Assembly: GCF_036365525.1 (NCBI RefSeq) | Contig: NC_090394.1 | Span: 15,748,528-15,812,527, forward strand | Reading direction: 5' to 3' | DNA from: Heterodontus francisci | Taxonomy: Eukaryota | DNA: 64,000 nt | In this document: positions 60-55,517 of the stretch, piece by piece | Numbering within the stretch: the stretch's first letter is position 1 | Layout: every line of letters starts with the position of its first letter | Position numbers and translations under genes: made by a program | The notes under the pieces: generated by a model | Database searches by the model: none | What the model was told of the DNA's origin: nothing | Seen by the model: only the letters and a program-made list of their open reading frames with translations

Positions 60-770
60 GTAATGTAGGAGTGTAGTGGAGGTAGCTGTGGGAGACAGTG
101 GGCTAATAATGAATATTAGTGCACAATCTATCCCCAGAGATAGAGACAGAAAAGTCGAGGAAGGGAAGTGTCAGAGATGGACCAGGGTGTTGCGGAGGGA
201 ACGACCCCTTTGGAATGTTGACAGGGGAGGGGAGGGCAAGATGCATTTGGGTGGTGGCATCACGCTGGAGGTGGTGGAAATGGCGGAGGATGATCCTTTG
301 GATGTGGAGGCTGGTGGGGTGAAAAGTGAGGACAAGGGAACCCTGTCGCGGTTCTGGGAGGGAGGGGAAGGGGTGAGGGCAGCAGTGCGGGAAATGGGCC
401 GGACACGGTTGTAGGCCGTCAACCATACTGGGGGGGGGCGGGAAATCCTCGGTTGAAGAAAAAGATATAGATCATAGATCATATCAGAAGCGCTGTTGTG
501 GAAGGGCGCATCATTGGAGCAGATAGATCCGTTGGAGATGGAGAAACTGGGAGAATGGATTGGAGTCCTTACAGCAGACAAGGTATGAAGGAGTGTAGTG
601 GAGGTAGCTGTGGGAGACAGTGGGCTAATAATGAATATTAGTGGACAATCTATCCCCAGAGATAGAGACAGAAAAGTCGAGGAAGGGAAGTGTCAGAGAT
701 GGACCATGTAAAGGTGAAAAAAGGGTGAAAATTGGAATTAAAGTTGATAAAGTTTTCCAGTTCGGATTAA
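60..770 (-). mobile_element. Penelope-like element fragment (RT C-terminus/linker) with an internal 118-bp duplication
   Basis: Minus-strand peptides LPFLDFSVSISGDRL and PSPPLSTFQRGRSLRNTLVH match the larger element at 31337-34720 (LFLDFSVSISGDRL, PSPPLSAFRRSHSLCDTLIH). 67-184 equals 589-706 with one mismatch. Confidence 0.75.
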
Positions 771-919: not shown

Positions 920-3900
920 ATTTTTTTTTATTCTTTCAGGGATGTGGGTGTCGCTGGCCAGGCCAGCATTTATTGCCCATCCCTAATTGCCCTTGAGAAG
1001 GTGGTGTTGAGCTGCCTTCTTGAACCGCTGCAGTCGATTTGGGGTCAGTATACCCACAGTGCTGTTAGGAAGGGAGTTCCAGGATTTTGACTCAGCGACA
1101 GTGAAGGAACGGCAATATAGTTCCAAGTCAGGATGGTGTGCAACTTGGAGGGGAACTTGCAGGTGGTGGTGTTCCCATGCATTTGCTGCCCTTGTCCTTC
1201 TAGTTGGTAGAGGTCGCGGGTTTGGAAGGTGCTGTCGAAGGAGCCTTGGTGCATTGCTGCAGTGCATCTTGTAGATGGTACACACTGCTACCACTGTGCG
1301 TCGGTGGTGGAGGGAGTGAATGTTTGTAGATGGGGTGCCAATCAAGCAGGCTGCTTTGTCCTGGATGGTGTTGAGCTTCTTGAGTGTTGTTGGAGCTGCA
1401 CCCATCCAGACAAGTGGAGAGTATTCCGTCACACTCCTGACTGATGCCTTGTAGATGGTGGACAGGCTTTGGGGAGTCAGGAGGTGAGTTACTTGCCTCA
1501 GGATTCCTAGCCTCTGACCTGCTCTTGTAGCCATGGTATTTATATGGTTACTCCAGTTCAGTTTCTGGTCAATGGTAACCCCTAGGATGTTGATAGTGGG
1601 GGATTCAGTGATGGTAATGCCATTGAATGTCAAGGGGAGATGGTTAGATTCTCTCTTGTTGGAGATGGTCATTGCTTGGCACTTGTGTGGTGCGAATGTT
1701 ACTTGCCACTTATCAGCCCAAGCCTGGATATTGTCCAGGTCTTGCTACATTTTTACACAGACTGCTTCAGTATCTGAGGAGTCACAAATGGTGCTGAACA
1801 TTGTGCAATCATCAGCGAACATCCCCACTTCTGACCTTATGATTGAAGGTAGGTCATTGATGAAGCAGCTGAAGATGGTTGGGCCAAGGACATTACCCTG
1901 GAGGAACTCCTGCAATGATGTTCTGGAGCTCAGATGATTGACCACCAACAACCACAACCATCTTCCTTTGCGCTAGGTATGACTCCAGCCAGCGGAGGGT
2001 TTTCCCCCTGATTCCCATGGACTTCAGTTTTGCTAGGGCTCCTTGATGCCGTACTGAGTCAAATGCTGCCTTGATGTCAAGGGCAGTCGCTCTCACCTCA
2101 CCTCTTGACATCAGCTCTTTTGTCCAAGGCTGTAATGAGGTCAGGAGCTGAGTGGCCCTGGCAGAACCCAAACTGAGCGTCCCAGAGGCAGGTTATTGCT
2201 AAACAAGTGCCGCTTGATGGCACCGTTGATGACACCTTCCATCACTTTACTGATGATTGAAAGTAGGCTGATGAGGCGGTAATTGGCCGGGTTGGACTTG
2301 TCCTGCTTTTTGTGTACAGGACATACCTGGGCAATTTTCCACAGTGCAGGGTTGATGCCAGTGTTGCAGCTGTACTGGAACAGCTTGGCTAGGGCCGCGG
2401 AAAGTTCTGGAGCACAGGTCTTCAATACTATTGCTAGAATATTGTCAGGGCCCATAGCTTTTGCAGTATCCAGTGCCTTCAGTCGTTTCTTGATATCACG
2501 TGGAGTGAATCGAATTGGCTGAAGTCTGGCATCTGCGATGCTGTGGACTTCAGGAGGAGGCCGAGATGGATCATCAACTCGGCACTTCTGGCTGAAGATT
2601 GTTGCAAATGCTTCAGCCTTATCTTTCGCACTGATTTGCTGGGTTCCCCCATCATTGAGGATGGGGATATTTGTGGAGCCACCTCCTCCAGTTAGTTGTT
2701 TAATTGTCCACCACCATTCACGGCTGGATGTGGCAGGACTGCAGAGCTTAGATCTAATCCGTTGGTTATGAGATCACTTCGCTCTGTCTATTACGTGCTC
2801 CTTACGCAGTTTGGCACGCAGATAGTCCTGTGTTGTAGCTTCACCAGGTTGACACCTTATTTTGAGGTATGCCTGGTGCTGCTCCTGGCATGCCCTCCTG
2901 CACTCTTTATTGAACCAGAGTTGGTCTCCTGGCTTGATGGTAATGGTAGAGTGGGGGATATGCCGGGCCATGAGGTTACAGATTGTGGTTGAGTACAATT
3001 CTGCTGCTGCTGATGGCCCACAGCGCCTCATGGACGCACGGTGGTAGTGCAACACAACACGATGGATGGTGTCCTCAATGTGAAGGCAGGACTTCGTCTC
3101 CACAAGGACTGCGCGGTGGTCACTCCTATCAATAGTCATGGACAAAAGCATCTGCGGCAGGCAGATTGGTGAGGACGAGGTCAAGTCTGTTCTTCCCTCT
3201 TGTTGGTTCCCTCACCACCTGCCGCAGACCCAGTCTAGCAGCCAAGTCCTTTAGGACTTGGCCAGCTCGGTCAGTAGTGGGGCTACCGAGCCACTCTTGG
3301 TGATGGACATTGAAGTCCCCCATCCAGAGTACATTTTGTGTCCTTGCCACCCTCAGTGCTTCCTCCAAGTGGTGTTCAACATGGAGGAGTACTGAGTCAT
3401 CAGCTGAGAGAGGGCGGTAGGTGGTAATCAGTAGGAGGTTACCTTGCCCATGTTTGACCTGATGCCATGAGACTTCATGAGGTCCGGAGTCGATGTTGAG
3501 GACTCCAAGGGCAACTCCTTCCCTACTGTATACCACTGTGCCACCATCTCTGTCGGTGGGACAGGACATACCTGGGGATGGTGATGGCAGTGTCTGGGAC
3601 AGTGTCTATAAGGTATGATTCCATGAGTATGACTATGTCAGGCTGCTGCTTGACTAGTCTGTGGGACACCTCTCCCAACTTTGGCACAAGCCCCCAGATG
3701 TTAGTAAGGAGGACTTTGCAGAGTCGACAGGGCTGGGTTTGCCGTTGTCGTTTCCGGTGCCTAGGTCGATGCCGGGTGGTCCGTCCGGTTTCATTCCTTT
3801 TTCTTGACTTCGTAGCGGTTCGGTACAACTGAGTGGCTTGCTAGGCCATTTCAGAGGGCATGTATGAGTTAACCACATTGCTATGGGTCTGGAGTCACAT

Positions 3901-4147
3901 GTAGGCCAGACCAAGTAAGGACAGCAGATTTCCTTCCCTAAAGGACATCAGTGAACCAGATGGGTTTTTACAACAATCGACAATGGTTTCATGGCCATCA
4001 TTAGACTAGCTTTTAATTCCAGATTTATTAATTGAATTCAAATTCCACCTTCTGCTGTGATGGGATTCAAACCCATGTCCCCAGAGAAATACCCTGGGTC
4101 TCTGGGTTACTAGTCCAGTGAATATACCACTACGCCACTGCCTACCC
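920..4147 (-). mobile_element. Near full-length, frameshifted CR1/L2-group LINE (APE endonuclease + RT, no ORF1) with a tRNA-like 5' head
   Basis: Endonuclease motifs KVLLTNIWGL, DIVILMESYL, MGDFNVHH, DLVLTN, SDH. RT motifs NYRLISLLSIISKVME, ALDIKAAFD, FADD. A-rich 3' tail near 920-935. A box at 4137-4127 and B box at 4073-4063. Exact clade not determined. Confidence 0.85.
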
Positions 4148-4672
4148 TGCATAATTCCTGCATGCCCTTCCCCTTTCCTTAACCCTATCTTGTTAATTGT
4201 GGTCCCTTCAGCTTCTTTGCTATGTCTCTGTGGTTTGACTCAAACCTGTGTCCCACTACTGAAGCTGCCCTGCCCTTGCCACAATCCAGCTCTGCTGTTT
4301 CGTCGAGATACTTAATTGTCGACTCTAGTGACTGTTGCTACACAGTGCTATTCACCTTACAGCCCATTCCCACAACATGGACTGAGCAGTCAGCTACTTT
4401 CCTATTACGCTTGGACCTGAATCTCTGCCATCACTGATCAGGCAGCCTGACGTGGGCCAGCATGATTGCATGTGGCAGTTCTTCTAACCTGCATAGGTGA
4501 AGCTGCATGTCATTTTCTACACAGACCTAAACGTGGTTACATTTTCACAATGATTCCAAAACCAATACAATCAGGGTGGAGGAGAGGAACCTTGTTACTC
4601 CCACAAACTAAATAAAAATCTAGCTCAGGTCATGCCATTTTAAGAACTACTGATCCAGATAGAAATTCAGCA

Positions 4673-4988
4673 GGCACAGTGGTTAGCACCGCAGCCTCAC
4701 AGCTCCAGGGATCCGGGTTCGATTCTGGGTACTGTCTGTGTGGAGTTTGCAAGTTCTCCCTGTGTCTGCGTGGGTTTTCGACGGGTGCTCCAGTTTCCTT
4801 CCACATCCAAAGACTTGCAGGTGATAGGTAAATTGGCCATTGTAAATTGCCCCTAGTGTAGGGAGGTGATAGGGAATATGGGATTACTGTAGGGTTAGTA
4901 TAAATGGGTGGTTGTTGGTCGGCACAGACTCGGTGAGCCGAAGGGCCAGTTTCAGTGCTGTATCTCTAAACTAAACTAAACTAAACTA
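4673..4988 (+). mobile_element. HE1/V-SINE-like tRNA-derived SINE, copy 1
   Basis: CAGTGGTTAGCAC head, GGTTCGATTC B box, V-domain-like TCTCCCTGTGTCTGCGTGGGTTT, CR1-like tail and (CTAAA)n end. Confidence 0.88.
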
Positions 4989-6053
4989 GATAAAAGCAGA
5001 TAATTCTTTTTTTCATGGCAATCCATTGCCTTCAGTGCTTTGGGATGGACTGTTCATATAAGCTGCTACAAAATAAAAAGAGCTTTGGACCATCAGAGAG
5101 AAACTAGCTGTAACAGAAACTGAGGAACAGAGCAGTCCTGAATCTAAAAGTATAAGGAAATCATATCCTTTGAAGCACGAAGGGATTGTCTAAATGATCA
5201 TAATGGAATCCAAAATTTTGCATGATGCAACACCACCTATCCTTCAATAGAAGCATTACCTGACCCTTCCTTCCTTCTCCTTATTAAGTCAATGTTGCAG
5301 CCGCTTCCAAAGGCGCAGACTACTATCCATGCCCACCCCCAGAGGAATCCAAGCCCAACAGAAATACTACCTGCTGAGCCACCACTCCCTCCCCTTCTAG
5401 TTCCCTCTTCCCCTCCTCGCTCCTCTACCCATACTAATCTTCCTACTATCCTCGACCACGCCCCTCCTCGCCCATCCTTTTCTCTCTTACTTCTCCACCC
5501 CATTATACTCCTTCCCCCTCCCATCCCTCTTGATACCTCTCTTTTTCATCACATATGGTTCTCTCTTGCCTTGCATGGCCCTATTATTCTCCCTTCTTCC
5601 AACTTGTTGAACAGGAGTACTGCCTTAGTTTTGAGTACCCATTTGCAACCGCATAGGAGATAGACTAGTAGATATATAATTGTTACAAATGTATCAGCTA
5701 CCATTCCTATTCCTGCGTCCTTTTATGTTCATACATTCACGAAATGCGAGCGTCACTGGCAAGGTCTGCATTTATTGGCCATGCCTAATTGGCCTTGAGA
5801 AGGTGAATGACTCCTCCTGGAAGTTTATGACTTTGGGCGATGACAGAGTTGTACTCCATGACAGAACAACTCACGATCACTCACTGTCCTGGCTGAAAGT
5901 ATGGTCGCATGGATGAGGCACTAAAGGATTAACAGAACTCAGGGAACCATAGTCCAGCATGGGTTACTGCCTTCAGAACAAAAGGGAGCTTGAGGGAGAA
6001 ACAATAAAGGGAAATCTGATTAAAAGGCAAAATAAATAAAAGGGAGTATTTAC

Positions 6054-8284: not shown

Positions 8285-9878
8285 GCTTAAAGTGGTGGAT
8301 GGGGTGCCAATGAATCAGGCTGCTTTATCCTGGATGGTGTTGAGCTTTTTGAGTGTTGTTGGAGCTGCACTCAGACAGGGAAGTGGAGAGTATTCTATCA
8401 CACTCCTAACTTATGTCTTGTAGATGGACAGGCTTTGGGGAGTCAGATGGTGAGTTACGCGCCGCAAAATTCCCAGCCTCTGAACTGCTTTTGTAGCCAC
8501 AGCATTTATGTGGCTGGTCCAGTTAAGTTTCTGGTTAATGGTAACCTCCAGGATGTTGATGGCAGGGTATTCAACGATGGTAATGCCGCTGAATGTCAAG
8601 GGAAGATGGTCAGATTCTCTCTTCTTGGCGCTAGTCATTACCCGACATATCACCTGGCACGAATGTTATCAGGCCAAGACTGAATGTTGTCCAGGTCTTG
8701 CTGCATACAAGCACAGAATGCTTCAATATCTGAGGAATTACGAAAGGGGATGAACACTGTGCAATCATCAGCACTCATCCCCATATCTGAACATAACCTA
8801 AGAAATAGGAGCAGGAGTAGACCATATGGCCCCTTGAACCTGCTCCACCATTCTATATGATCATGTCTGACCTTAGGATGGAAGGGATGCCCCTGATAAA
8901 GCAGGTGAAGATGGATGGGCCTGGGACACTGGTCCTGAGGAATGCCTGCAGCAATGTCCTGGGGTTCAAATAACTCCAACAACCACAACCATCTCCCTTT
9001 CTGATGGGTATGACTCCAACCAGTGGCGAGCTCCCCCCATCCCGATTCCCATTGACTCCAGTTTTACTACGCTTCCTTGATGCCACAGTCAACTGTTGCC
9101 TTGATGTCAAGTGCAGTCACTCACTCCTCACTGCTAGAATTCAGCTCTTTTGCCCATATTTGGACCAAAGCTATAATGAGGTTTGGAGCTGAGCGACTCT
9201 GCTGGAACCCAAATTGAGCATCGGTGAGCAGATTATTGCTGAGTTAGTGACGCTTGATAGCACTATCAATAACACCTTCCATCACTTTGCTGATGATCAA
9301 GAGGAGACTGATGAGCTGGTAATTGGCCGGATTAGATCTTTAGTTTAGTTTAGTTTAGAGATACAGCACTGAAACAGGCCCTTCGGCCCACCGAGTCTGT
9401 GCCGACCATCAACCATCCATTTATACTAATCCTACACTAATTCCATATTCCTACCACATCCCCACCTGTCCCTATATTTCCCTACCACCTACCTATGCTA
9501 GGGGCAATTTATAATGACCAATTAACCTATCAACCAGCAAGTCTTTGGCATGTGGGAGGAAACCGGAGCACCCGGAGGAAACCCACGCAGACACAGGGAG
9601 AACTTGCAAACTCCACACAGGCAGTACCCAGTATTGAACCCGGGTCGCTGGAGCTGTGAGGCTGCGGTGCTAACCACTGCGCCGCCTTTCTGTCCTGCTT
9701 TTTCTGGACAGTACATACCTGGGCAATGTTCCACATTGTCAGGTAGATACCAGTGTTGTAGCTGTACTGCAACAGCTTGGCAAGGGGCATGGCTAGTTCT
9801 GGAGTACAAGTCTTCAGCACCACAGCCAGGATGTTGTCAAGTCCTTTGCTGTATCCAGTGCCTTCAGCCGTTTCTTGA
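8285..9878 (-). mobile_element. Second, older RT-region copy of the 920-4147 LINE family, interrupted by a CR1 3' tail (~8790-8870) and a SINE
   Basis: Colinear homology to ~1320-2495; peptides HLPLTFSGITIVEYPAINILEVTINQKLNW and DNILAVVLKTCTPELAMPLAKL. Confidence 0.85.
9339..9686 (-). mobile_element. HE1/V-SINE-like SINE, copy 2, nested in a LINE
   Basis: Reverse complement of the SINE consensus seen in the other copies; (TTTAG)n at 9339-9358; LINE sequence resumes on both sides. Confidence 0.9.
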
Positions 9879-16724: not shown

Positions 16725-19700
16725 AAGCCTGAGGCAGAGGACCACGTGGATAGCACATTTAGGGAGGTTAGGAGCATGCAGGCAGAGAGGGAATGGGTGA
16801 ATGCCAGGCAGACTAAGAGAACCAGGCAGGCAGTGCAGGAGTTCCCTGAGTCTATCTTACGTGCTAATCGATTTTCCATTTTGGATACTGGTGAGAGTAA
16901 TGGTTCCTCGGGGGAGTACAGCCAGAACAAAGTTTAAGGCACCACGTGGGGCTCCACTGCACAGGAGGGGAGTAGGAAGAGTGGAAGAGCAATAGTGATA
17001 GGGGATTCGATAGTCAGGGGATCAGACAGACGTTTCTGTGACAGTAAACGTGATTCCAGGATGGTGTGTTGCCTCCCTGGTGCCAGGGTTAAGGATGTCA
17101 TGGAGTGGCTGCAGGACCTCCTTCTGGGGGGAGGGTGAATAGCCAGGTCATGGTCCACATTGGTACCAATGACATAGGTAGGAAGCGGGATGAGGTCCTG
17201 AAAGCAGATTTTAGGGAGTTAAGAAGGAAATTAAAATGCAGGACCTCAAAAGCAGTAATCTCAGGATTACTCCCAGTGCCACATGCTAGTGAGCATAGAA
17301 ATGGGAGGACTGATCGATCGAATACGTGGCTGGATAATTGGTGTAGGAGGGAGAGCAGGGACCCGGGTTCGATTCTGGGTACTGCCTGTGTGGAGTTTGC
17401 AAGTTCTCCCTGTGTCTGCGTGGGTTTTCTCCGGGTGCTCCGGTTTCCTCCCACAAGCCTAAAGACTTGCAGGTTGGTAGGTAAATTGGCCATTATAAAT
17501 TGTCACTAGTATAGGTAGGTGGTAGGGAAATATAGGGACAGGTGGGGATGTTTGGTAGGAATATGGGATTAGTGTAGGATTAGTATAAATGGGTGGTTGA
17601 TGGTCGGCACAGACTCGGTGGGCCGAAGGGCCTGTTTCAGTGCTGTATCTCTAATCTAAAAAATCTAAAGCATCACATCCCTGAGGCATTGGGACCAGTT
17701 CTGCAGCAGGTGGGGCCTGGACAAGATGGATGGGCTACACCTTAACAGGATCGGAACTAACATCCTCGCAGGGAGATTTGCTAGTGCTGTTGGGGAGGGG
17801 TTTAACTAGCTTATCAAGGGGGTGGGAACCTGAGGGATAGCTCAAATTGGAATGAAGTAAAGCTGGTAACAGGAGGTAGAAAAGTAGCAAGTGACATTAG
17901 AAGGCAGGCGAAACAAAGGCGAGCATCAACTAGGCTTAGAAAGCAGAACGTCAAGGCGGCAAGGTTAAGGGCACTCTACCTTGCATTTGCAACTAGGTAG
18001 ATAATTTAAAGACCCAAATAGAGGTAAATGGGTATGATCTAATTGCCATAATGGAAACATGGCGACAGGGTGACCAATACTGGGAACGGAACATTCAAGG
18101 ATATTCGACATATAGGAAGGACAGGCAAAAAGGAAAAGGAAATGGTGTTGTGCTGATAATAAGGGATGGGCTCAGTACATTAGTGAGGAAGGATCTCCGA
18201 CCAGAAGAACAAAATGTGGAATCTGTTTGGGTAGAGCTAAGAAACAGCAAGGGGCAGCAAACATTGTTTGAAATTATTTATAAGCCACCAAACAGTAGTG
18301 GTAGTGTGGGGCCTGGTATTACTCAGGAGATTAGAGAAGCATGGGTAATACAGTAATCATGGGTGACCTCAATCTGCACATAGACTGGGTAAACCTAATG
18401 AACACGAACGCTGTGAAGGACGAGTTTCTGGAGTGTGTTAGGAATGTTTTTTTTTTAAGAGCAGTATGTTGAGGAACCGACTAGAGAACAGACTATTTTA
18501 GATTTAGTATTACGTAATGAGAAAGGGTTAATTAAAATTCTTGTTGTAAAAGAACCTTTAGGGATGAGTGACCATAATATGATAGAATTTTACATTATGT
18601 TTGAAAGTGAGGTAGTTTAATCTGAAGCCAGGGTGTGAAATTTGAACAAAGGAAATGATGAAGGTATGAGGGGCAAATTGGCTGATGTGGATTGGGAAAA
18701 TACATTAAAGGTATGACAGTACATAAGCAATGGATAGTCTTTCAAGAAATATAACATAGTTTACAGCAACTATACATTCCTTCAAGGCACAAAAGCCACA
18801 AAAGTAAAGGCAGTCAACCGTGGATAACAAAGGAAGTTAAGGATTGTATAAGAGTAAAAGAAAAAGCCTATAAAGTTGCCAGAAATATTAGTAAACCTGA
18901 GTGGGAGGATTTTAGAATACAGAAAAGGAGGACCAAGAAACTGATAAATAAAGGGAGAACAGAATATGAATGCAAGCTAGCAAAAAATATAAAAACAGGC
19001 TGTAAAAGCTTCTATAGGTAAGTAAAAAGGAAACTTTTGGCTAAGACAAATGTGGGTCCATTACAGACAGAGTCAGGAGAATTTATAATGGGAATAGAGA
19101 AATGGCAGAGAAGCTAAATGATTACTTTGTGTCAGTCTTCACTGAGGAAGATACAAGAAATCTCCCAGAATTAGAGATCGAAGGGATTAGGGGGAATGAG
19201 GAATTGAAGGAAATTAGTATTTGCAAGAAGGTTGTATTGGAGAAATTAATGGGGCTGAAGGTTGATACATCCCCAGGACCAAATATTCTACATCCCAGAG
19301 TGTTGAAAGAGGTCGCTATGGAGATATTGGTGATCATCTTCCAAAATTCTATTGATTCTGGAGCGGTTCCTGCAGATTGGAAGGTCACAAATGTCACCCC
19401 ACTATTTAAGAAGGGAGGGAGGGAAAAACAGGGAATTACAGACCAGTTCGCCTTACAGCAGTCGTTAGGAAAGCGCCAGAATCTATTCTAAAGGATGTGA
19501 TAAATGGACACTTGGATAATAACAATCTGATTGGGCATAGTCAATATGGATTTGTGAATGGGAAATCATGTTTGATGAACCTGAGTGAGTTTTTTGAGGA
19601 TGTTCCTGACAGAATTGATAAAGGGGAGTCAGTGGAAGTGGCATACTTGGATTTTCAGAAGGCGTTTGATAAAGTCCCCCACAGGAGGTTGGTTAGCAAA

Positions 19701-20800
19701 ATTAAAGCACATGGGATAGGAGGTAAAATATACTGGCACGGATTAAGGATTGGTTAACAGGCAGAAAGCAGAGAGTAAGAATAAACGGGTCAATCTCGCG
19801 TTGGCAGGCTGTCACCAGTGGGGTACCGCAGGAATCAGTGCTTGGGCCCCAGCTGTTCACAATATATCAATGATTTGGATGTGGGGACCAAATATAGTAT
19901 TTCCAAGTTCGTGGATGGCACAAAGCTAGGTGGGAATGTGTGTTGTGAGGAAGATGCAAAGTGGCTTCAAGGGGATTTGGAAAGACTTGGTGAGTGGGCA
20001 AGAACGTGGCAGATGGAATATACTTTGGAAAAATGTGAGGTTATCCACTTTGGTAGGAGGAACAGATGTGCAGAATATTTCTTGAATGGTAAGAGATTAG
20101 AAAGTGTAGATGTACAAAGGGACCTGGGTGTCATGGTCACTAAGTCACAGAAAGCTAACATGCGGGTGCAGCAAGCAATTAAGGCGGCTAATGGTATGTT
20201 AGCCTTTATCGCAAGAGGATTTGAGTACAGGAGTAGTGAAGTCTTGCTTTAATTGTATAGAACCTTGGTTAGACTGCACCTGGAGTAGTGTGTGCAATTT
20301 TGGTCCCCTTACCTTAGGATGGATATTATTGCCATAGAGGGAGTACAACAAAGGTTCACCAGACTTGTTCCCGGGATGGTTAGATTGTCCTATGAAGAGA
20401 GATTGGGCAAACTGGGCCTGTATTCTCTATAGTTTAGAAGAATGAGATGTGATCTCATTGAAACCTACAAAATACTTAAAGGGATAGACAGGGTAGATAC
20501 AGCTAAGATATTTCCCCTGGTTGGAGAATCTAGAACCAGAAGACAATTTCAAAATAAGTGGGAAACCACTTAGGACAGAGGTGAGGAGCAATTTCTTTAG
20601 TCAGAGGGTTGTGACTAATGAAGCTGTCATTGAGTATGTTTAAAACAAAGATTGAGAGATTTTTAAATACAAATGACATAAGGGGATATGGGGATATGAG
20701 GATAGTGTGGGGAAAAAGGCACTGAAGTGAAAGATCACCCATGATTGCATTGAATGGCGGGGCAGACTCGATGGGCTGAATGGCCTTCTCCTATGTTCTG
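16725..20800 (+). mobile_element. CR1 (HER1-like) LINE: ORF1 SGNH-esterase plus degenerate ORF2 and 3' tail
   Basis: VIGDSIVRG near 16995, VHIGTNDIG, endonuclease YKPPNS, RT KSCLMNL, YLDFQKAFDKVPH, SKFVDGTKL; tail GATGGGCTGAATGGCC near 20770. Confidence 0.9.
17356..17669 (+). mobile_element. HE1/V-SINE-like SINE, copy 3 (5'-truncated), inside CR1 ORF1
   Basis: Starts just before the B box, ends CTAATCTAAAAAATCTAAA; CR1 ORF1 resumes afterwards. Confidence 0.9.
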
Positions 20801-21942: not shown

Positions 21943-23845
21943 ATAGAATCACAGAATTGTTACAGTGCAGGAGGCCATTTGGCTCATTGTGTCGGTACCA
22001 GCTCTCCATAAGAGCAATTCACTCAGTTCCATTCCCCTGCCTTCTCCCCGTAACCCTGCATATTCTTCCTTTTCATATAACTGTCTAATTCCCTTTTGAA
22101 TGCTTCCATTGAACCTGCCTCCACCACGTTCTCAGGCAGCGCATTCCAGACCCTAACCATTCTCTGCCTGAAAAAACTTTTCCTCATGTCAGTTTTGCTT
22201 CTCTTACCAAATACTTTAAATCTGTGCCCTCTCATTCTCGATCCTTTCACGAGTGGAAATAGTTTCTCTCTATCTACTCTGTCCAGACCTCTCATGATTT
22301 GGAATACCTCCATCAAATCACCTCAGCCATCTCTTCTTCAAGGAAAACAGTCCTAACTTCTCCAATCTATCTTAATAACTGAAGTTCTTCATCCTTGGAA
22401 CCATTCTCGTGAATCTTTTCTGCATTCTCTCCAATGCCCTCACGTCTTTCCTAAAGTGTGGCGCCCAGAACTGGAAGCAATGCTCCAGCTGACGAATGTC
22501 TTATACAAGTTCATCTTAACTTCCTTGTTCTTGTACTCTATGCCCCTATTAATAAAGCCCAGGATACTGCGTGCTTTATTAACTGCTTTCTGAACCTGTC
22601 CTGCCACCTTCAATGACTTGTGCACATATACACCGAGGTTCTTCTGCTCCTGCACCCCCTTTAGAATTGTACCCTTTATATTATCTCTCCATATTCTTCC
22701 TACAAAAATGAATCACTTCACATTTCTCTGCATTGAATTCCATCTGCCACCTGTCTGCCCATTCCACTAACTTGTCTATATCCTTTCAGAGTTCTACATG
22801 ATCCTCCTCACAGTTCACAAAGCTTCCACAGTTCTGCAAACTTTGAAATTGTGCCCTGTACACCAAGGTCTAGGTCATTAATATGCGTCAGGAAAAGCAA
22901 GGGTCCCAACACTGACCCCTGGGGAACTCCACTACATACCTTCCTCCAGCCCGAAAAACATCCATTAACCACTATTCTCTGTTTCCTGTCACTTAGTCAA
23001 TTCCATATCCACGTTGCTACCGTCCCTTTTATTCCACGAGCCATAAGCTTGCTCACAAGTCTATTGTGTGGCACTGTATCAAAAGCCTTTTGAAAGTCCA
23101 TGTACACCACATTAACAGCATTATCCTCATCAACCCTCTGTTACCTCCTCAAAAAACTCCAGCAAGTTAGTTAAACGTGATTTTCCCTTAAGAAATCTAT
23201 GCTGGCTTTCCTTAATTAACTCGCATTTGTCCACATGACTTAATTTTGTCCTGAATTATTTTTTCTAGAAGTTTCCCCACCACCGAAGTTAAACTGGCTG
23301 GCCTATAGTTGCTGGGTTTATCTTTACACCATTTTTGGAACAAGGCTGTAACGTTTTACAATTCTCCAGTCCTCTGGCACCACTCCAGAGTCTAAGGAAG
23401 ACTGAAAAATTATGGCCAGTGCCTCCGCGATTTCCACTCTCACTTCCCTCAGTCTCCTTGGATGCATCTCATCTGGTCCTGTTATTTTATCCACTTTAAG
23501 TACAGACAGCCTATCTAATACATCCTCTTCATCAATTTTAAACCCCTCTAGTGTCTGACTTACCGCCTCTTTCACCATTGCCTGAGTTGTATCTTCTTCC
23601 TTGGTAAAGACAGATGCAAAATATTCATTTAATACCTCAGCTATGCCCTCTGCCTCCATGAGTAAATCCCCTTTCTGGTCCCTAATCGGCCCAATTCCTC
23701 CTTTTACCACCCTTTTGCTATTTATATGCCTATAGAAAACATTAGGATTTCCTTTAATGCTCACTGCCAGTCTCTTTTCATGCTCACTCTTTGCTTCTCC
23801 TATTTGTTTTTTCACTTCCCCTCTGGACCTTCTATTTTCTCCCTG
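21943..23845 (-). mobile_element. CR1 ORF2 RT-to-3' end, inserted in an older plus-strand CR1 endonuclease fragment (~21640-21940 and ~23850-24240)
   Basis: AEVLNEYFASVFTKE, GPDEMHPR, GVPQGSVLGP, RGHRFK. Flanks carry DIATITEA and MGDFNF on the plus strand. Confidence 0.85.
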
Positions 23846-34721: not shown

Positions 34722-35088
34722 GGGGAGACGGTGGCGGTGTAGTGGTAACGTCACTGAACTTGTAATCCAGCAGCCCAAGCTAATTCCCTGGTGACACAGG
34801 TTCAAATCTCATCATGGCAGCTGGCGGAATTTAAGTTCAATTAATTAATATTAAAATTCTGGAATTGAAAGTGAGTCTCAGTTTCATTGCACTATTACTA
34901 TCAATTATCCTTTAGGGAAAGAAATCTGCTGTCCTTATCTGGTCTGGCCTACATGTGACTCCAAACCCACAGTAATGTGGTTGACTCTTAAACTGCCATC
35001 TGAAATGGACTAGCAAGCCACTCAGTTGTCAAGGGCAATTAGGGATGGGTAACAAATGCTGGCCTTGCCAGTAACATCGACATCCCAT
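34722..35088 (+). mobile_element. tRNA-headed non-autonomous element built from both ends of the 920-4147 LINE
   Basis: 5' part matches LINE 4147-3825, then at 35029/35030 (CTCAGTTGT|CAAGGGCAATT) continues as LINE 995-935. Confidence 0.85.
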
Positions 35089-41640: not shown

Positions 41641-44298
41641 TTCTTCTTCTTTGGCCTCCTTGTCTCGAGAGACAATGGGTAAGCGCCTAGAGGTGATCAG
41701 TGGTTTGTGGAGCAGCGCCTGGAGTGGCTATAAAGGCCAATTCTAGAGTGACAGACTCTTCCACAGGTGCTGCAGATAAAATTGGTTCTCAGGACTGTTA
41801 TGCAGTTGGTTCTCTCCTTGCATTTGTCTTTTTTCCTACCAACTGCTAAGTCTCTTCGACTCGCCACTCTTTAGCCCCGCCTTTATGGCTGTCCGCCAGC
41901 TCTGGCGATCACTGGCAACTGACTCCCACGACTTGTGGTTAATGTCAAAGGACTTTATGTCATGTTTGCAGACATCTTTAAAGCAGAGACATGGATGGCG
42001 GTTGGTCTGATACCAGTGACAAGCTCGCTGTACAATGCATCCTTGGGGATCCTGCCATCTTCCATGCGGCTCACATGACCAAGCCCATCTCAAGCACCGC
42101 TGGCTCAGTAGGATGTATATGCTGGGGATGTTGCCCACTTCGAAGACTTCTGCGTTGGAGATACGGTCCTGCCACCTGATGCCAAGGATTCTCCGGAGGC
42201 AGCAAAGATGGAATGAGTTGAGACGTCACTCTTGGCTTACATACGTTGTCCAGGCCTCGCTGTCGTAGAGCAAGGTACCGAGGACACAGGTTTGAAACAC
42301 TCGGACTTTTGTGTTCCATGTCAGTGCACCATTTTCCCACACCCTCTTGACCAGTCTAGACATAGCAGCAGACAACAAGCCTTTCCCATGCGCTTGTTGA
42401 TTTCTGCATCGAGAGACAGGTTACTGGTGATAGCTGAGCCTAGGTAGGTGAACTCTTGAACCATTTCCAGAGCGCGCTCGTCGATATTGATGGATGGAGC
42501 ATTTCTGACGTCCTGTCCCGTGATGTTCGTTTTCTTGAGGCTGATAGTTAGGCCAAATTCATTGCAGACAGCCGCAATCCTGTCAATGAGTCTCTGCAGA
42601 CACTCTTCTGTGTGGGATGTTAATGCAGCATCATCAGCAAAGAGGAGTTCCCTGATGAGGACTTTCTGTACTTTGGTCCGCTCTATGACAGGCAAGGTTG
42701 AACAACCTGCCATCTGATCTTGTGTGGAGGAAAATTCCTTCTTCTGAAGACTTGAATGCATGTGAGAGCAGCAGGGAGATTATGATCCCAAACAGCGTAG
42801 GTGCAAGAACACAGCCCTGTTTCACGCCACTCAGGATAGGAAAGGGGTCTGATGAGGCACCGCTATGCTGAATTGTGCCTTTCATATTGTCATAGAATGA
42901 GGTGATAATATACTTAGTAGCTTTGGTGGACATCCAATCTTTGCTAGTAGTCTGAAGAGACCACGTTTGCTGATAAGGTCAAAGGCTTTGGTGAGATCAA
43001 TGAAAGCAACGCAGAGGGGCATCTGTTGCTCACGGCATTTCTCCTGTAGCATGTCAATGGTGGATCTCTCTGCTTGAAAGCCACACTGTGCCTCAGGGTA
43101 GACATGCTCAGCCAGCTTCTGGAGTCTGTTTAAAACAACATGAACAAAGACTTTTCCCACTATGCTGAGCAGGGAGATTCCACAGTAGTTGTTGCAGTCA
43201 CCGCCGTCACCCTTGTTCTTATAGAGGGTGATGATATTGGCATCGCACATGTCCTGTGGTACTGCTCCCTCTTCCCAGCACAGGTAAAGCAGTTCATGGA
43301 GTGCTGAGAGTATAGCAGGCTTGGCACTCTTGATTATTTCAGGGGTAATGCAGTCCTTTCCAGGAACCTTTCCACTGGCTAGAGAATCAATGTCCTCACT
43401 GAGTTCCGATTTTGTTGGCTGTTCATCCAGCTCATCCATGACTGGCAGAGACTGGGCTGCATTGAGGGCAGTATCAGTGACAACATTCTCCCTGGAGTAC
43501 AGTTCTAGGTAGTGCTCTACCCAGCTATCCATTTGCTTGCATTAGTCAGGTATCGTTTCCCCTGATTTAGACTTGAGGGGGGCGATCTTCTTGATGGTTG
43601 GCCCAAAAGCTCTCTTAATGTCATCATCCATTCCTCTGATGTTTCCGGTGTCTGAGACCAGCTGAATACGACTGCATAGGCGTTGCCAGTAATCATTTGC
43701 ACAGCGCCTGGCTGTTCTTTGTGCAGCGCTTCTGGCTACTATAAGTGCTACGGATGTTAACTCGCTTGGGGATTTCCTGTAGTTCAATAGTGCAATGCGC
43801 TTAGCGGCTATGACAGGTTCCAGCTCTTCAAAGTGAGATTGAAACCAGTCTGCATTCTGCTTCTCACATTTGCCAAAGGTGGCAATTGCTGAATCATAGA
43901 TGGCATCTCTGATGTGGGCCCACTTCATCTCTGCATTCCCTGTAGGAGTGTTTTGAAGGGCTTTTACGAGTGAATTTAGAAACTTATGTAACAGCTGTGG
44001 ATAGGAAATTCTGTTAGTGTTGATGCGCAGGCATCACTCTGCTTGGAGTGATGTAGCTTCTTTAGTTTGAGTCTAACTTTGCTGCACACCAGGGAGTGGT
44101 CAGTGTTGCAGTCCACACTGCGGAAGCTGCGTGTGATTTGGACACTGTTTATAGAGACTCACCTTGTGACGATGAGGTCCAGCTGGTGCCAATGACGTGA
44201 TCTTGGGTGTCTCCATGAAACCTGGTGAGAGGGCTTAGCATGAACGAACGAGTTGGTGATGCAGAGGTTGTGATAGGTACACAACTCCAGCAGTCTCA
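41641..44298 (-). mobile_element. RTE-clade LINE, 5'-truncated, degenerate
   Basis: SWRHPRSRHWHQLDLIVTR, DHSLV, NNYCGISLLSIVGKVF, EAQCGF, AFIDLTKAFD, GVKQGCVLAPTLF, LLFADDAAL; (GAA)n tail at 41641. Confidence 0.9.
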
Positions 44299-44709: not shown

Positions 44710-45057
44710 GGGCGGCACAGTGGCGCAGTGGTTAGCACTGCAGCCTCACAGCTCCAGGGACCCGGGTTCGATTCCGGGTACTGCCTGTGTGGAGCTTGCA
44801 AGTTCTCCCTGTGTCTGCGTGGGTTTTCTCCGGGTGCTCCGGTTTCCTCCCACAAGCCAAAAGACTTGCAGGTTGGTAGGTAAATTGGCCATTATAAATT
44901 GTCACTAGTATAGGTAGGTGGTAAGGAAATATAGGGATGTTTGGTAGGAATATGGGATTAGTGTAGGATTAGTATAAATGGGTGGTTGATGGTCGGCACA
45001 GACTCGGTGGGCTGAAGGGCCTGTTTCAGTGCTGTATCTCTAATCTAATCTAAAAAA
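44710..45057 (+). mobile_element. HE1/V-SINE-like SINE, copy 5
   Basis: Full head GGGCGGCACAGTGGCGCAGTGG, B box GGTTCGATTCC, (CTAAT)n tail. Confidence 0.92.
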
Positions 45058-51390: not shown

Positions 51391-51720
51391 TTTTACTCGT
51401 TTGTGGGATGCGGGCATCCTTAATTGCTAATTTCAGAGGGCATTTAAGAGTCAACCACATTGCTGTTGGTCTGGAGTCACATGCAGGCCAGACCAGGTAA
51501 GGACAGCAGATTTCCTTCCCTAAAGGACATTAGTAAACCAGATGGGTTTTTACAGCAATCGACAATGGTTTCATGGTCACTATTTGACTAGCTTTTTAAT
51601 TCCAGATTTTATTAACTGGAATTAAAATGTCATGATCTGCCGTGGTGGGATTCGAACCCATGTCCCCAGAGCACTGGATTACCAGTACAGTGACATTACC
51701 ACTACGCCACCACCTACCCC
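51391..51720 (-). mobile_element. Second tRNA-headed non-autonomous derivative of the 920-4147 LINE
   Basis: TGGCGTAGTGG A box, perfect GGTTCGAATCC B box near 51648-51658, body matching LINE 4147-3850, then a shortened LINE 3' tail. Confidence 0.85.
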
Positions 51721-51814: not shown

Positions 51815-54800
51815 AGGTTGTGGTACACATCGGTACCAATGACATAGGCAAGAAGAGTGATGAGGTCCTGCAGGGGGAGTTTAGGGAGTTAGGTAGTAAG
51901 TTAAAAGACAGGACCTCGAGGGTTGTAATATCTGGATTACTCCCTGTGCCACATGCCAGTGAGGCTAGAAATAGGAAGATAGTGCAGCTAAACACGTGGC
52001 TGAGCAGCTGGTGTAGGAGGGAGGGTTTCAGATATCTGGACCATTGGGCTCTCTTCAGGGACAGATGGGACCTGTACAAGAAGGACGGGTTGCATCTAAA
52101 CTGGAGGGGCACTAATATCCTGGCTGCAAGGTTTACTAGCATCACTCGGGAGGGTTTAAACTAGTGTGGCAGGGGGGCGGGAACCAGAGCAGTAAGACAG
52201 CTAGTGAAATAAATGAGGAGGACATAGTAAATAAGGCCAGTAGGACTAAGAGGAAAAGCAGGCAGGGAGATGCTGCTGAGCACAGCGGGACTGGTGGTCT
52301 GAAGTGCATTTGTTTCAATGCGAGAAGTATAACAGGTAAGGCAGATGAACTTAGAGCTTGGATTAGTACTTGGAAATATGATGTTGTTGCTATTACAGAG
52401 ACTTGGTTGAGGGAAGGGCAGGATTGGCAGCTAAATGTTCCAGGCATTAGAAGCTTCAGGCGGGATAGAGGGGGATGTAAAAGGGGTGGGGGAGTTGCAT
52501 TACTGGTTAAGGAGAATATCACAGCTGTACTGCGGGAGGACACCTCGGAGGGCTCATGCAGCGAGGCAATATGGGTAGGGCTCAGGAATAGGAAGGGTGC
52601 AGTCACGATGTTGGGGGTTTACTACAGGCCTCCCAACAGCCAGCGGGAGGTAGAGGAGCAGATATGTAGACAGATTTTGGAAAGATGTAAAGGTAACAGG
52701 GTTGTGGTGGTGGGTGATTTTAACTTCCCCAATATTGACTGGGACTCACTTAGTGCTAGGGGCTTGGATGGGGCAGAATTTGTGAGGAGCATCCAGGAGG
52801 GCTTCTTGAAACAGTATGTAGATAGTCCAACTAGGGATGGGGCCATTCTGGACCTGGTATTGGGGAATGAGCCCGGCCAGGTGGTCGAAGTTTCAGTGGG
52901 GGAGCATTTCGGGAGCAGTGACCATAATTCCATAAGTTTTAAGGTACTTGTGGATAAGGATAAGAGTAGTCCTCGGGTGAAGGTGCTAAATTGGGGGAAG
53001 GCTAATTATAACAATATTAGGCAGGACCTGAAGAATTTAGATTGGGGGCGGCTGTTTGAGGGTAAATCAACATCTGACATGTGGGAGTCTTTCAAACGTC
53101 AGCTGATTAGAATCCAGGACCAGCATGTTCCTGTGAGGAAGAAAGACAAGTTTGGCAAGTTTTGGGAAGTTTGGATAACATGGGATATTGTGAGCCGAGT
53201 CAAAAAGAAAGAAGAAGCATTTGTAAGGGCTGGAAGGCTAGGAACAGATGAAGCACTTGAGGAATATAAAGACAGTAGGAAGGAACTTAAGCAAGGAGTT
53301 AGGAGGGCTAAAAGGGGTCATGAAAAGTCATTGGCAAACAGGATTAAGGAAAATCCCAAGGCTTTTTATACATATATAAAGAGCAAGAGGGTAACCAGGG
53401 AAAGGGTTGGCCCACTCAAGGACAGAGATGGGAATCTATGTGTGGAGCCACAGGAATTGGGCGAGGTGCTAAATGAGTACTTTGCATCAGTATTCACCAA
53501 AGAGAAGGACTTGGTGGATGATGAGCCTAGGGAAGGGAGTGCAGATAGTCTCAGTCATCTCATTATCAAAAAGGAGGTGGTGTTGGGTGTCTTGCAAAGC
53601 ATTAAGGTAGATAAGTCCCCAGGGCCTGATGGGATCTACCCTAGAATACTGAGGGAGGCAAGGGAAGAAATTGCTGGGGCCTTGACAGAAATCTTTGCAT
53701 CCTCATTGGCTACAGGTGAGGTCCCTGAGGACTGGAGAATAGCCAATGTTGTTCCTTTGTTTAAGAAGGGTGGCAAGGATAATCCAGGAAATTATAGGCT
53801 GGTGAGCCTTACGTCATTGGTAGGGAAACGATTAGAGAGGATTACTCGGGACAGGATTTCCTCCCATTTGGAAACAAACGAACTTATTAGCGAGAGATAG
53901 CATGGTTTTGTGAAGGGGAGGTCGTGTCTTACTAATTTGATTGAGTTTTTTGAGGAAGTGACAAAGATGATTGATGAAGGAAGGGCAGTGGATGTTATCT
54001 ATATGGACTTTAGTAAAGCCTTTGACAAGGTCCCGCATGGCAGACTGGTACAGAAGGTGAAGTCACACGGGATCAGAGGTGAGCTGGCAAGATGGATACA
54101 GAACTGGCTCGGTCATAGAAGACAGAGGGTATCAGTGGATGGGTGTTTTTCTGAATGGAGGGATGTGACTAGTGGTGTTCCGCAGGGATCAGTGCTGGGA
54201 CCTTTGCTCTTTGTAGTATATATAAATGATTTGGAGGAAAACGCAGCTGGTCTGATTAGTAAGTTTGCGGACGACACAAAGGTTGGTGGAATTGCGGATA
54301 ATGATGAGGATTGTCAGAGGATACAGCAGGATACAGATCGGTTGGAGACTTGGGCGGAGAAACGGCAGATGGAGTTTAATCCGACAAATGTGAGGTAATG
54401 CATTTTGGAAGGTCTAATGCAGGTGGGAGGTATACAGTAAATGACAGAACCCTTAGGAGTATTGACAGGCAGAGAGATCTGGGCGTACAGGTCCACAGGT
54501 CACTGAAAGTGGTAACGCAGGTGGATAAGGTAGTCAAGAAGGCATACGGCATGCTTGCCTTCATCGGTCGGGGCATAGAGTATAAAAATTGGCAAGTCAT
54601 GTTGCTGCTGTTCAGAACTTTAGTTAGGCCACACTTAGAATATTGCATGCAACTCTGGTCGCCACAGTACCAGAAGGACGTGGAGGCTTTGGAGAGGGTA
54701 CAGAGGAGGTTTACCAGGATGTTGCCTGGTCTGGAGGGCATTAGCTATGAGGAGAGGTTGGAAAAACCCGGATTGTTTTCACTGGGAGGTGGAGGGGCGA

Positions 54801-55517
54801 CATGATAGAGGTTTACAAAGTTATGAGCGCATGGACAGAGTGGATAGTCAGAAGCTTTTTCCCAGGGTGGAAGAGTCAGTTACTAGGGGACATAGGTTTA
54901 AGGTGCGAGGGGCAAAGTTTAGAGGGGATGTGCGAGGCAAGTTTTTTTTTACACAGAGGGTGGTGAGTGCTTGGAACTTGCTGCCAGGGGAGGTGGTGGA
55001 AGCAGATACGATAGCGACGTTTATGAGACATCTTGACAAATATATGAATAGGAAGGGAATAGAGGGATATGGGCCCCGGAAGTGGCGGCACAGTGGTTAG
55101 CACCGCAGCCTCACAGCTCCAGCGACCCGGGTTCAATTCTGGGTACTGCCTGTGTGGAGTTTGCAAGTTCTCCCTGTGTCTGCGTGGGTTTCCTCCGGGT
55201 GCTCCGGTTTCCTCCCACATGCCAAAGATTTGCAGGTTGATAGGTAAATTGGCAATTATAAATTGCCTCTAGTATAGGTAGGAGATAGGGAAATATAGGG
55301 ACAGGTGGGGATGTGGTAGGAATATGGAATTAGCGTAGGATTAGTATAAATGGGTGGTTGATGGTCGGCGCAGACTCGGTGGGCCGAAGGGCCTGTTTCA
55401 GTGCTGTATCTCTAAATTTAAAAAAAGTGCAGACGGTGTTAGTTTAGGCAGGCATCAAGATCGGCGCAGGCTTGGAGGGCCGAATGGCCTGTTCCTGTGC
55501 TGTACTGTTCTTTGTTA
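51815..55517 (+). mobile_element. Young CR1 LINE: 5'-truncated ORF1 esterase, near-intact ORF2 (APE + RT), 3' UTR
   Basis: 578-aa open frame 52164-53900 (CFNARSI, AITETWL, YRPPN, GDFN, SDHN); stop in SER*HGF, then in-frame YMDFSKAFDKVPH, GVPQGSVLGP, KFADDTK; frameshifts near 54380 and 54790; tail GGGCCGAATGGCCTGTTCCTGTGCTGT. Confidence 0.93.
55084..55426 (+). mobile_element. HE1/V-SINE-like SINE, copy 6, in the CR1 3' UTR
   Basis: Consensus SINE sequence flanked by repeated AAGTG; CR1 UTR resumes at ~55427. Confidence 0.92.

Follow-up and report, generated by a model that had tools for sequence, protein, structure and literature searches.

The DNA analysed here is a window of 64,000 nucleotides from Heterodontus francisci (GCF_036365525.1, NC_090394.1, 15,748,528-15,812,527), and all positions are given within it unless stated otherwise. 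On its minus strand, at 921-4147, lies a full-length but decayed copy of an elasmobranch Zenon LINE, which differs by 3.8% from the majority sequence of its family and has no target-site duplication. Read from 4147 to 921, it opens with GGGTAGGCAG and is made up of a tRNA-like head, a linker, a 137-nt body, an endonuclease-reverse transcriptase frame, a short 3' UTR and the poly(A) tail carried by the shark LINE. The head (4053-4147) is derived from tRNA-Thr(AGT), and its variable arm carries a 20-nt insert. It holds a Pol III A box (4127-4137), a remnant of the anticodon loop (AGT; 4107-4113) that is the same as the tRNA-Thr loop, and a B box (4063-4073) decayed here by a C>T change at a CpG. 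The conserved body (3825-3961) ends where the frame of ORF2 begins. ORF2 (983-3840) consists of an Arg-rich leader, an APE-type endonuclease (3132-3710; PF03372 and PF14529) and a reverse transcriptase (1570-2307; PF00078, mapped from copy L131), the bounds of both domains being approximate. All three models match the natural copy L131, and pieces of the domains match in the window. The 3' tail (921-996), which is common to the SINE forms, comprises the end of ORF2, a predicted stem-loop, a short (TGAA)-like repeat and poly(A).

An earlier note on this DNA had described a complete endonuclease and reverse transcriptase ORF2 with no room for an ORF1. ORF2 is complete in span and open over 975 codons in the family majority, but in the window it is broken by five frameshifts (3553, 3134, 2188, 2126 and 1901), a 45-nt deletion at 3037 and two in-frame stops (2776 and 1747), the longest open frame being 253 aa. 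With these lesions and the decayed B box, the window copy is dead. As about 305 nt stand ahead of the ORF2 frame, there is indeed no room for ORF1.

Other repeats surround the element. Older copies of the LINE, about 77-83% identical, lie at 8295-9878 (minus strand) and just left of the window (L070, 1-2420), and the latter retains the tRNA head. A different tRNA-type SINE with a (CTAAA)n tail, perhaps HE1-like, is found at about 4670-4990 (plus strand). The repeat left of the element contains a local duplication of about 110 nt (61-180 and 591-700, plus strand), with two frames that have no Pfam match. A tRNA-like call by ARAGORN at 44714-44786 (plus strand), whose anticodon is not clear, is probably a SINE head.

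Head, body and ORF2 as one mobile unit

The sequence across the body-to-ORF2 junction has 10,622 exact matches in the genome, and that across the body-to-tail junction of the SINE form has 5,083; the reversed controls gave none. When the head and ORF were used together as a query, which favours such copies, all 39 other loci began at the same base, within a few nucleotides, and their flanks were unrelated. A query of endonuclease DNA only is free to find any 5' end. Of the 29 copies picked in this way, 18 extend to the head, while the remaining 11 are 5'-truncated, ten inside the linker or body and one at the ORF start. Neither an ORF1 nor another kind of 5' end was present among these 29 copies, and no two of their upstream flanks were alike. 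Similarly, 25 of 29 copies picked by the head alone run on into ORF2, and the other four carry internal deletions. Among the first 40 LINE-junction matches on contig C1, 29 contain at least 1.5 kb of the ORF and 28 extend to the head (25/37 after removal of three duplicated loci). Contigs from sequencing runs of other organisms also bridge the body-to-ORF junction; being contigs, they give no start, strand or level.

Head, 137-nt body, ORF2 and poly(A) tail are mobile as one unit, and that the head-to-ORF junction is a trait of the family can hardly be doubted. The earlier note had asked for a count of independent loci; the junction is family-wide, with unrelated flanks, and not confined to one locus. 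It had also named two findings that would speak against it, a junction unique to this locus and longer, ORF1-bearing copies with another 5' UTR, and neither was seen. A hidden ORF1, of which the element would be a truncated view, was rejected on the endonuclease-picked copies. No consistent target-site duplication was found in 37 full elements. Insertions at L037, L043 and L055 appear to be blunt-ended, in some cases with microhomology of a few bases to the head, and at L033, L048, L091 and L138 a short repeat of the first bases of the head stands immediately upstream.

The family majority was built from the 25 full-length copies among 40, the rest having large indels or no tail. It is 3,298 nt long with a single open frame of 975 codons, and its copies are 3.3% away from it. 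Two further layers were reached from the older copy adjoining the window and picked from 39 loci by a tree. The middle layer (13 copies, 98.8% identical) and the old layer (17 copies, 92.1%) both possess the head and ORF2; the three layers are related to one another and not independent, and the old-layer majority is noisy and contains two stops. Between the old and the young layer, pN/pS in ORF2 is 0.28-0.30; by region, the endonuclease has 0.25, the remainder 0.28 and the 42-codon leader about 1. Judged by these ratios, ORF2 is under purifying selection between the two layers. The autonomous LINE family with a tRNA-derived head that the earlier note proposed is thus upheld by more than 10,000 junction copies, three age layers and selection on ORF2. 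Pieces of ORF2 also occur inside shark gene models of unrelated proteins (P0001, P0014, P0025, P0035 and P0037). These are probably annotation errors, and some may be exonisation.

The tRNA-derived head, the conserved body and the SINE forms

The Rfam tRNA model matches 4053-4141 weakly (19.9 bits with a gathering threshold of 29, E 0.41). The family head, when compared with a tRNA-Thr(AGT) gene of the same genome, scores 66.3, with none of 500 shuffles exceeding 47.2. Both boxes had been located correctly before, but the B box quoted then is the decayed form; 16 of the 25 full-length copies have GTTCGAATCCC. The A and B boxes are retained in the three layers although the head drifts to 77% identity. 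By eye, both are also present in the six published consensuses, from five species, in the available part of PMC13343379, the HypSab B box being short of one base.

The first capture of such a head is likely, as had been supposed, since invertebrate relatives and the Zenon elements of hagfish and coelacanth show none; the donor SINE was not found. Among 16 metagenome loci of relatives, Rfam gave no tRNA head, and a box pattern run over 80 relative loci turned up a single A/B pair (L239), which Rfam did not confirm. In the hagfish and coelacanth Zenon sequences, as far as available, no head was seen by eye in the first 400 nt. With the relatives lacking it, the first capture probably brought a SINE head onto a LINE, the opposite direction to the later births of SINEs.

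Between the LINE layers the body is 96-99% identical, and it has hardly changed in the SINE form, the older SINE family included. It may let ribosomes enter or proteins bind. For copy L132, the body gave no better fold than its shuffled versions (z +0.66); the body varies too little for a covariation test, and no known ribozyme or IRES family in Rfam matches it at E up to 5. MER131 was considered as a candidate for the body and not adopted. A comparison with the alignments of UCON3, Deu and Meta in the available part of the PMC7245038 supplement, made by eye only, gave no likeness.

The short forms, consisting of head, body and tail, have at least eight different breakpoint pairs, which indicates that the LINE repeatedly sheds SINEs by internal deletion. 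At 31-34 of 34 diagnostic sites, the heads of four young deletions and of the L047 SINE are of the young type; thus, the LINE keeps producing SINEs. The majority of the older SINE family (28 loci, copies 10.6% away from it) is mixed, with 12 young and 16 old sites. Two older SINE forms of the family lie in the window at 34722-35088 (plus strand) and 51430-51719 (minus strand), the former of which seeded the older SINE majority.

The polymerase and the start of translation

We consider the element, with a probability of roughly 60%, to be a 3.3-kb single-ORF Zenon of sharks and rays whose tRNA-Thr head would have it transcribed end to end by Pol III, that is, a Pol III-transcribed autonomous LINE. 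The reading is drawn from sequence, from the boxes and from the scarcity of T-runs on the coding strand. Vertebrate Pol III terminates at runs of at least four T, so that avoidance of such runs is what a Pol III template would be expected to show, without proving one. The earlier note had held that the T4 near 3144 would stop Pol III. This T4 (3144-3147, minus strand), the sole internal sense T4 of the window copy, is a private C>T change where the family has TTCT; as a barrier it was rejected, for the family avoids T-runs. Sense T4 is absent from the majorities of the young, middle and old layers, which have 12-15 A4, and T3 runs number 5-8 per layer against about 22 expected from base content. 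Single, unselected copies have 21 T4 in 97 kb (0.22/kb). In the same genome, 31 other LINE segments have 171 in 36 kb (4.7/kb), and five RTE-like segments have 12 in 7.1 kb (1.7/kb), two short ones being without T4. None of 80 metagenome loci of relatives, most of them richer in T, is free of T4. The controls of this genome include CR1-like ORF2 remnants at 52284-55052 (plus strand), 19045-20619 (plus) and 22068-23824 (minus), and an ORF2 remnant at 41700-43859 (minus); the latter and its kind we take to be RTE-like from DUF6451.

The absence of T4 was rejected as a stand-alone proof. It also arises when dinucleotides (306 of 2000) or codons (424 of 5000) are shuffled, two controls that keep the depletion of TT and against which it is not significant, and in 36 of 3000 sequences of a third control. 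As zero T4 is weak alone, controls within the genome and across species were put in its place. At T/C synonymous sites, the share of T drops with the length of the run that a T would create (155/333, 46/147, 4/38 and 0/2), while in pooled relatives it is flat at 0.66-0.70. The log odds for synonymous T-runs are -1.77 in the family (p 3e-5), -1.61 in the old layer, and -1.13 and -1.80 in the natural copies L131 and L132. The 64 relatives with a long frame have a mean of -0.03 (sd 0.43, minimum -0.93), and RTE-like frames have -0.08 and 0.11. Graded avoidance is also seen in one of the relatives, L285 (log odds -0.93). The A/G control gives -0.48 and is similar to that of RTE-like frames. Sites that permit a T4 amount to 2.1 per 1000 codons, ten times rarer than in the relatives, each of the 64 having at least 21. 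That an AATAAA at positions 119 and 343 is tolerated in all layers also speaks for Pol III.

On the Pol III reading, TFIIIC would bind the boxes and Pol III would start about 10 nt upstream of the A box. It would read through the 3.3 kb because there is no internal terminator and would terminate in the flank, where the next T-run occurs. Transcripts of Pol III have no cap. On such an RNA, ribosomes would have to enter internally, beyond eight upstream AUGs, for which the conserved body is a candidate. The ORF2 protein would then bind the 3' stem-loop and insert the element by target-primed reverse transcription; both the binding of the 3' end and this mode of insertion are established for LINEs.

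A Pol II element, whose tRNA-like 5' end came from a SINE and was kept as an RNA structure or Pol II promoter, is a less probable account, though one to be taken seriously. LINEs are regarded as being transcribed by Pol II (PMC10886601 and PMC5786205, both available in part), as stated for non-LTR retrotransposons generally in the former, which also puts the known mobile elements of Pol III under about 1.3 kb by reason of its processivity. All LINE layers have an AATAAA about 45 nt ahead of the 3' end, the head (77%) has diverged faster than the body (96%), and a capped RNA is easier to translate. T-runs would then be avoided for RNA stability or to remove U-rich elements that would activate internal AATAAA. 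Against it, LINEs of the same genome, including the ORF1-less RTE-like ones, keep their T4 and show no graded avoidance, and sharks and rays alike retain both boxes and the distance between them. The sharply defined 5' end lies where a tRNA-type promoter would put the start. As eight AUGs precede either candidate start of translation, cap-dependent scanning is not simple either.

Under the Pol III reading, the start of translation needs an explanation of its own. Close relatives open with Met and 20-36 basic residues; the shark frame has the Arg-rich leader but no Met. The first in-frame Met of ORF2 is codon 285, downstream of the endonuclease, and by its predicted translation ORF2 is without a usable in-frame AUG ahead of that domain. 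Two candidates lie upstream. One is an ATG-GCC-TAG mini-frame (3841-3849, minus strand), in frame with ORF2 in this genome. The other is the conserved ATG of a 46-codon upstream frame (3654-3794, minus strand), which stands at -1 to ORF2 and overlaps the basic leader. The AUG at 3794 is found in 142 of 165 copies and in all six published consensuses (PMC13343379, available in part), and its distance to the endonuclease fits the Met of close relatives; it is absent from the old-layer majority. For a -1 shift, the search for a canonical slippery site and a spaced hairpin was negative.

As seen by eye in the available part of that source, both AUGs and the TAG are present in all six consensuses, with spacers of 46, 46, 46, 42, 45 and 38 nt. 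In three of the six, the first AUG and the leader are in different frames; both dogfish ones have a further in-frame stop, and in the ray consensus the second AUG holds the same -1 offset to the endonuclease; automated consensuses may, however, err in A-runs. Read-through of the UAG from the ATG at 3849, initially preferred, was lowered on account of the three out-of-frame consensuses, which favour the second AUG with a -1 shift. The route that we tentatively prefer, at somewhat less than even odds, starts at AUG 3794 and enters the Arg-rich leader by a -1 shift. An AUG-independent entry at the end of the body would be less likely, and read-through of the AUG-GCC-UAG stop less likely still. 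Around the TAG (3833-3851, minus strand) there is a hairpin whose 7-nt loop resembles an anticodon loop (C-U-AGC-A-A), which may be chance.

The labour could also be split, with Pol III making the RNA that is copied and the protein coming from other RNAs, either Pol II read-through of genic copies or a minority lineage with ATG-GCC-GAG, in which the stop is a sense codon. Most full-length copies would then act as long SINEs. The uncapped nature of Pol III RNA agrees with this proposal. By hand count, the third codon of the mini-frame is TAG in 70 and GAG in 15 of the first 100 LINE-junction matches, while GAG occurs in two of the first 100 SINE-junction matches. Some young G-type copies also share a linked second change at position 1982 (6/20 against 0/89). 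On the other side, GAG-type copies are scattered on a poorly resolved tree (17 changes against 18.2 in shuffles, a comparison of weak power). Other CCTA(G) sites have a similar excess of T>G; over family positions 305, 909, 1818, 2184 and 2331 it reaches 6-12%, against a mean of 0.7% over 667 T sites, and this context-dependent hotspot partly accounts for the GAG form. With no support from the tree, a dedicated GAG helper lineage was rejected. The TAG in all published consensuses, their out-of-frame leaders and the further stops of the dogfish also speak against the split, as does the selection on ORF2 between two layers whose majority is TAG. Overall, we think it improbable. Lastly, a chance SINE insertion beside a 5'-truncated LINE, or a longer ORF1-bearing element seen in truncated form, could appeal to the abundance of the same-head SINE, but is refuted to the point of a negligible chance by the junction counts with their empty reversed controls, the single kind of 5' end among endonuclease-picked copies and the like build of the published consensuses (PMC13343379, available in part).

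The Pol III reading can be extended into a history, to which we would give slightly better than an even chance. An autonomous coding retrotransposon would have lived on Pol III since before the split of sharks and rays: a SINE head replaced its promoter, terminators were purged, translation of its uncapped 3.3-kb RNA does without a normal start codon, and each deletion yields a finished SINE. If true, the usual account of the origin of SINEs would be reversed. The divide between LINEs and SINEs rests on Pol III being taken as a maker of short, non-coding RNA. The family would lend itself as a natural test of long transcription by Pol III and of the translation of uncapped RNA, and the role of a conserved SINE body could be assayed directly ahead of its own ORF. 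It would also offer a one-step route from LINE to SINE. Its junction copies number more than 10,000 in one genome, and it has relatives among both sharks and rays.

Relation to known elements

The elasmobranch Zenon family is already catalogued (Stuart 2026; PMC13343379, available in part), where Zenon is without ORF1 as a rule and has poly(A) tails. The earlier note was right that ORF1 is absent but took this as unusual for the CR1/L2 group, whereas it is the rule for Zenon. The shark element has the features of Zenon, which belongs to the CR1 group: APE and RT in one ORF, no ORF1, poly(A) and a match to the published elasmobranch consensuses. Five of these were matched by a motif search and six agree by eye over the first 400 nt, the stretch that the comparison covers, without the ORF; five of the six are 3.24-3.31 kb long. 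CarCar_, RhiTyp_, ScyCan_, HypSab_ and SquAca_Zenon have the same head, body, ATG-GCC-TAG, downstream ATG and poly(A), and no ORF1. In the available main text of that paper, the words "tRNA", "polymerase III" and "start codon" appear nowhere, and the part available does not describe a Pol III promoter, T-run avoidance, a missing start or derived SINEs. The family is known; its build, a LINE enzyme with a SINE promoter, a terminator-free coding strand and no normal start, is undescribed. Our searches found no publication that describes a shark LINE with a tRNA head or Pol III transcription, though the same searching also missed PMC13343379, and Repbase or Dfam entries may already record the head.

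In a quick RT tree of 92 of 297 hits, in which no labelled Zenon protein was included, the element falls in a clade of 52 rows (SH-aLRT 95) that also holds a moth protein, apart from the CR1-like (L090 branch) and RTE-like RT of this genome. The closest full-length proteins outside sharks are 37-42% identical and mostly lie on contigs of 3-4 kb; no relative was found on viral contigs. Canonical vertebrate CR1 has an esterase ORF1 and a microsatellite tail (PMC13343379, available in part), unlike the shark element with its poly(A), lack of ORF1 and separate branch. From the RTE clade it is set apart by an RT far from the RTE-like frames of this genome; its 37 full elements also have no target-site duplication. 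As for SINE2, the tRNA-derived head with A and B boxes is present, while at 3.3 kb and 975 codons under selection the element is neither short nor non-coding, as only its deleted derivatives are.

Lepidopteran Zenon (PMC6740152, available in part) is similar in its length of about 3.3 kb, single ORF, poly(A) and repeated birth of short, internally deleted elements. Persaeus, a deleted moth Zenon from the same source, is without tRNA homology or a Pol III promoter, whereas the shark deletions are ready-made tRNA SINEs. The layout of the shark short form, in turn, is that of the tRNA-derived SINEs with a LINE body and tail described by Kojima (2018; PMC5786205, available in part). In that model, the head is added onto a deleted LINE, and the donors are only RTE and Vingi. 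As the autonomous shark LINE is already headed, a single deletion suffices. A possible precedent for a LINE with a tRNA-like sequence is RTE-1_DAn with its kin, of the RTE clade in Drosophila; the available part of PMC5786205 does not give the position and function of that sequence, and a brief literature search found no dedicated paper on RTE-1_DAn. Retroelements with a captured Pol III promoter, as here, are the TRIMp3 elements Cassandra, Helenus and Ajax (PMC10886601, available in part). Unlike the shark LINE, these are non-coding, of the LTR type and only 0.3-1.3 kb long.
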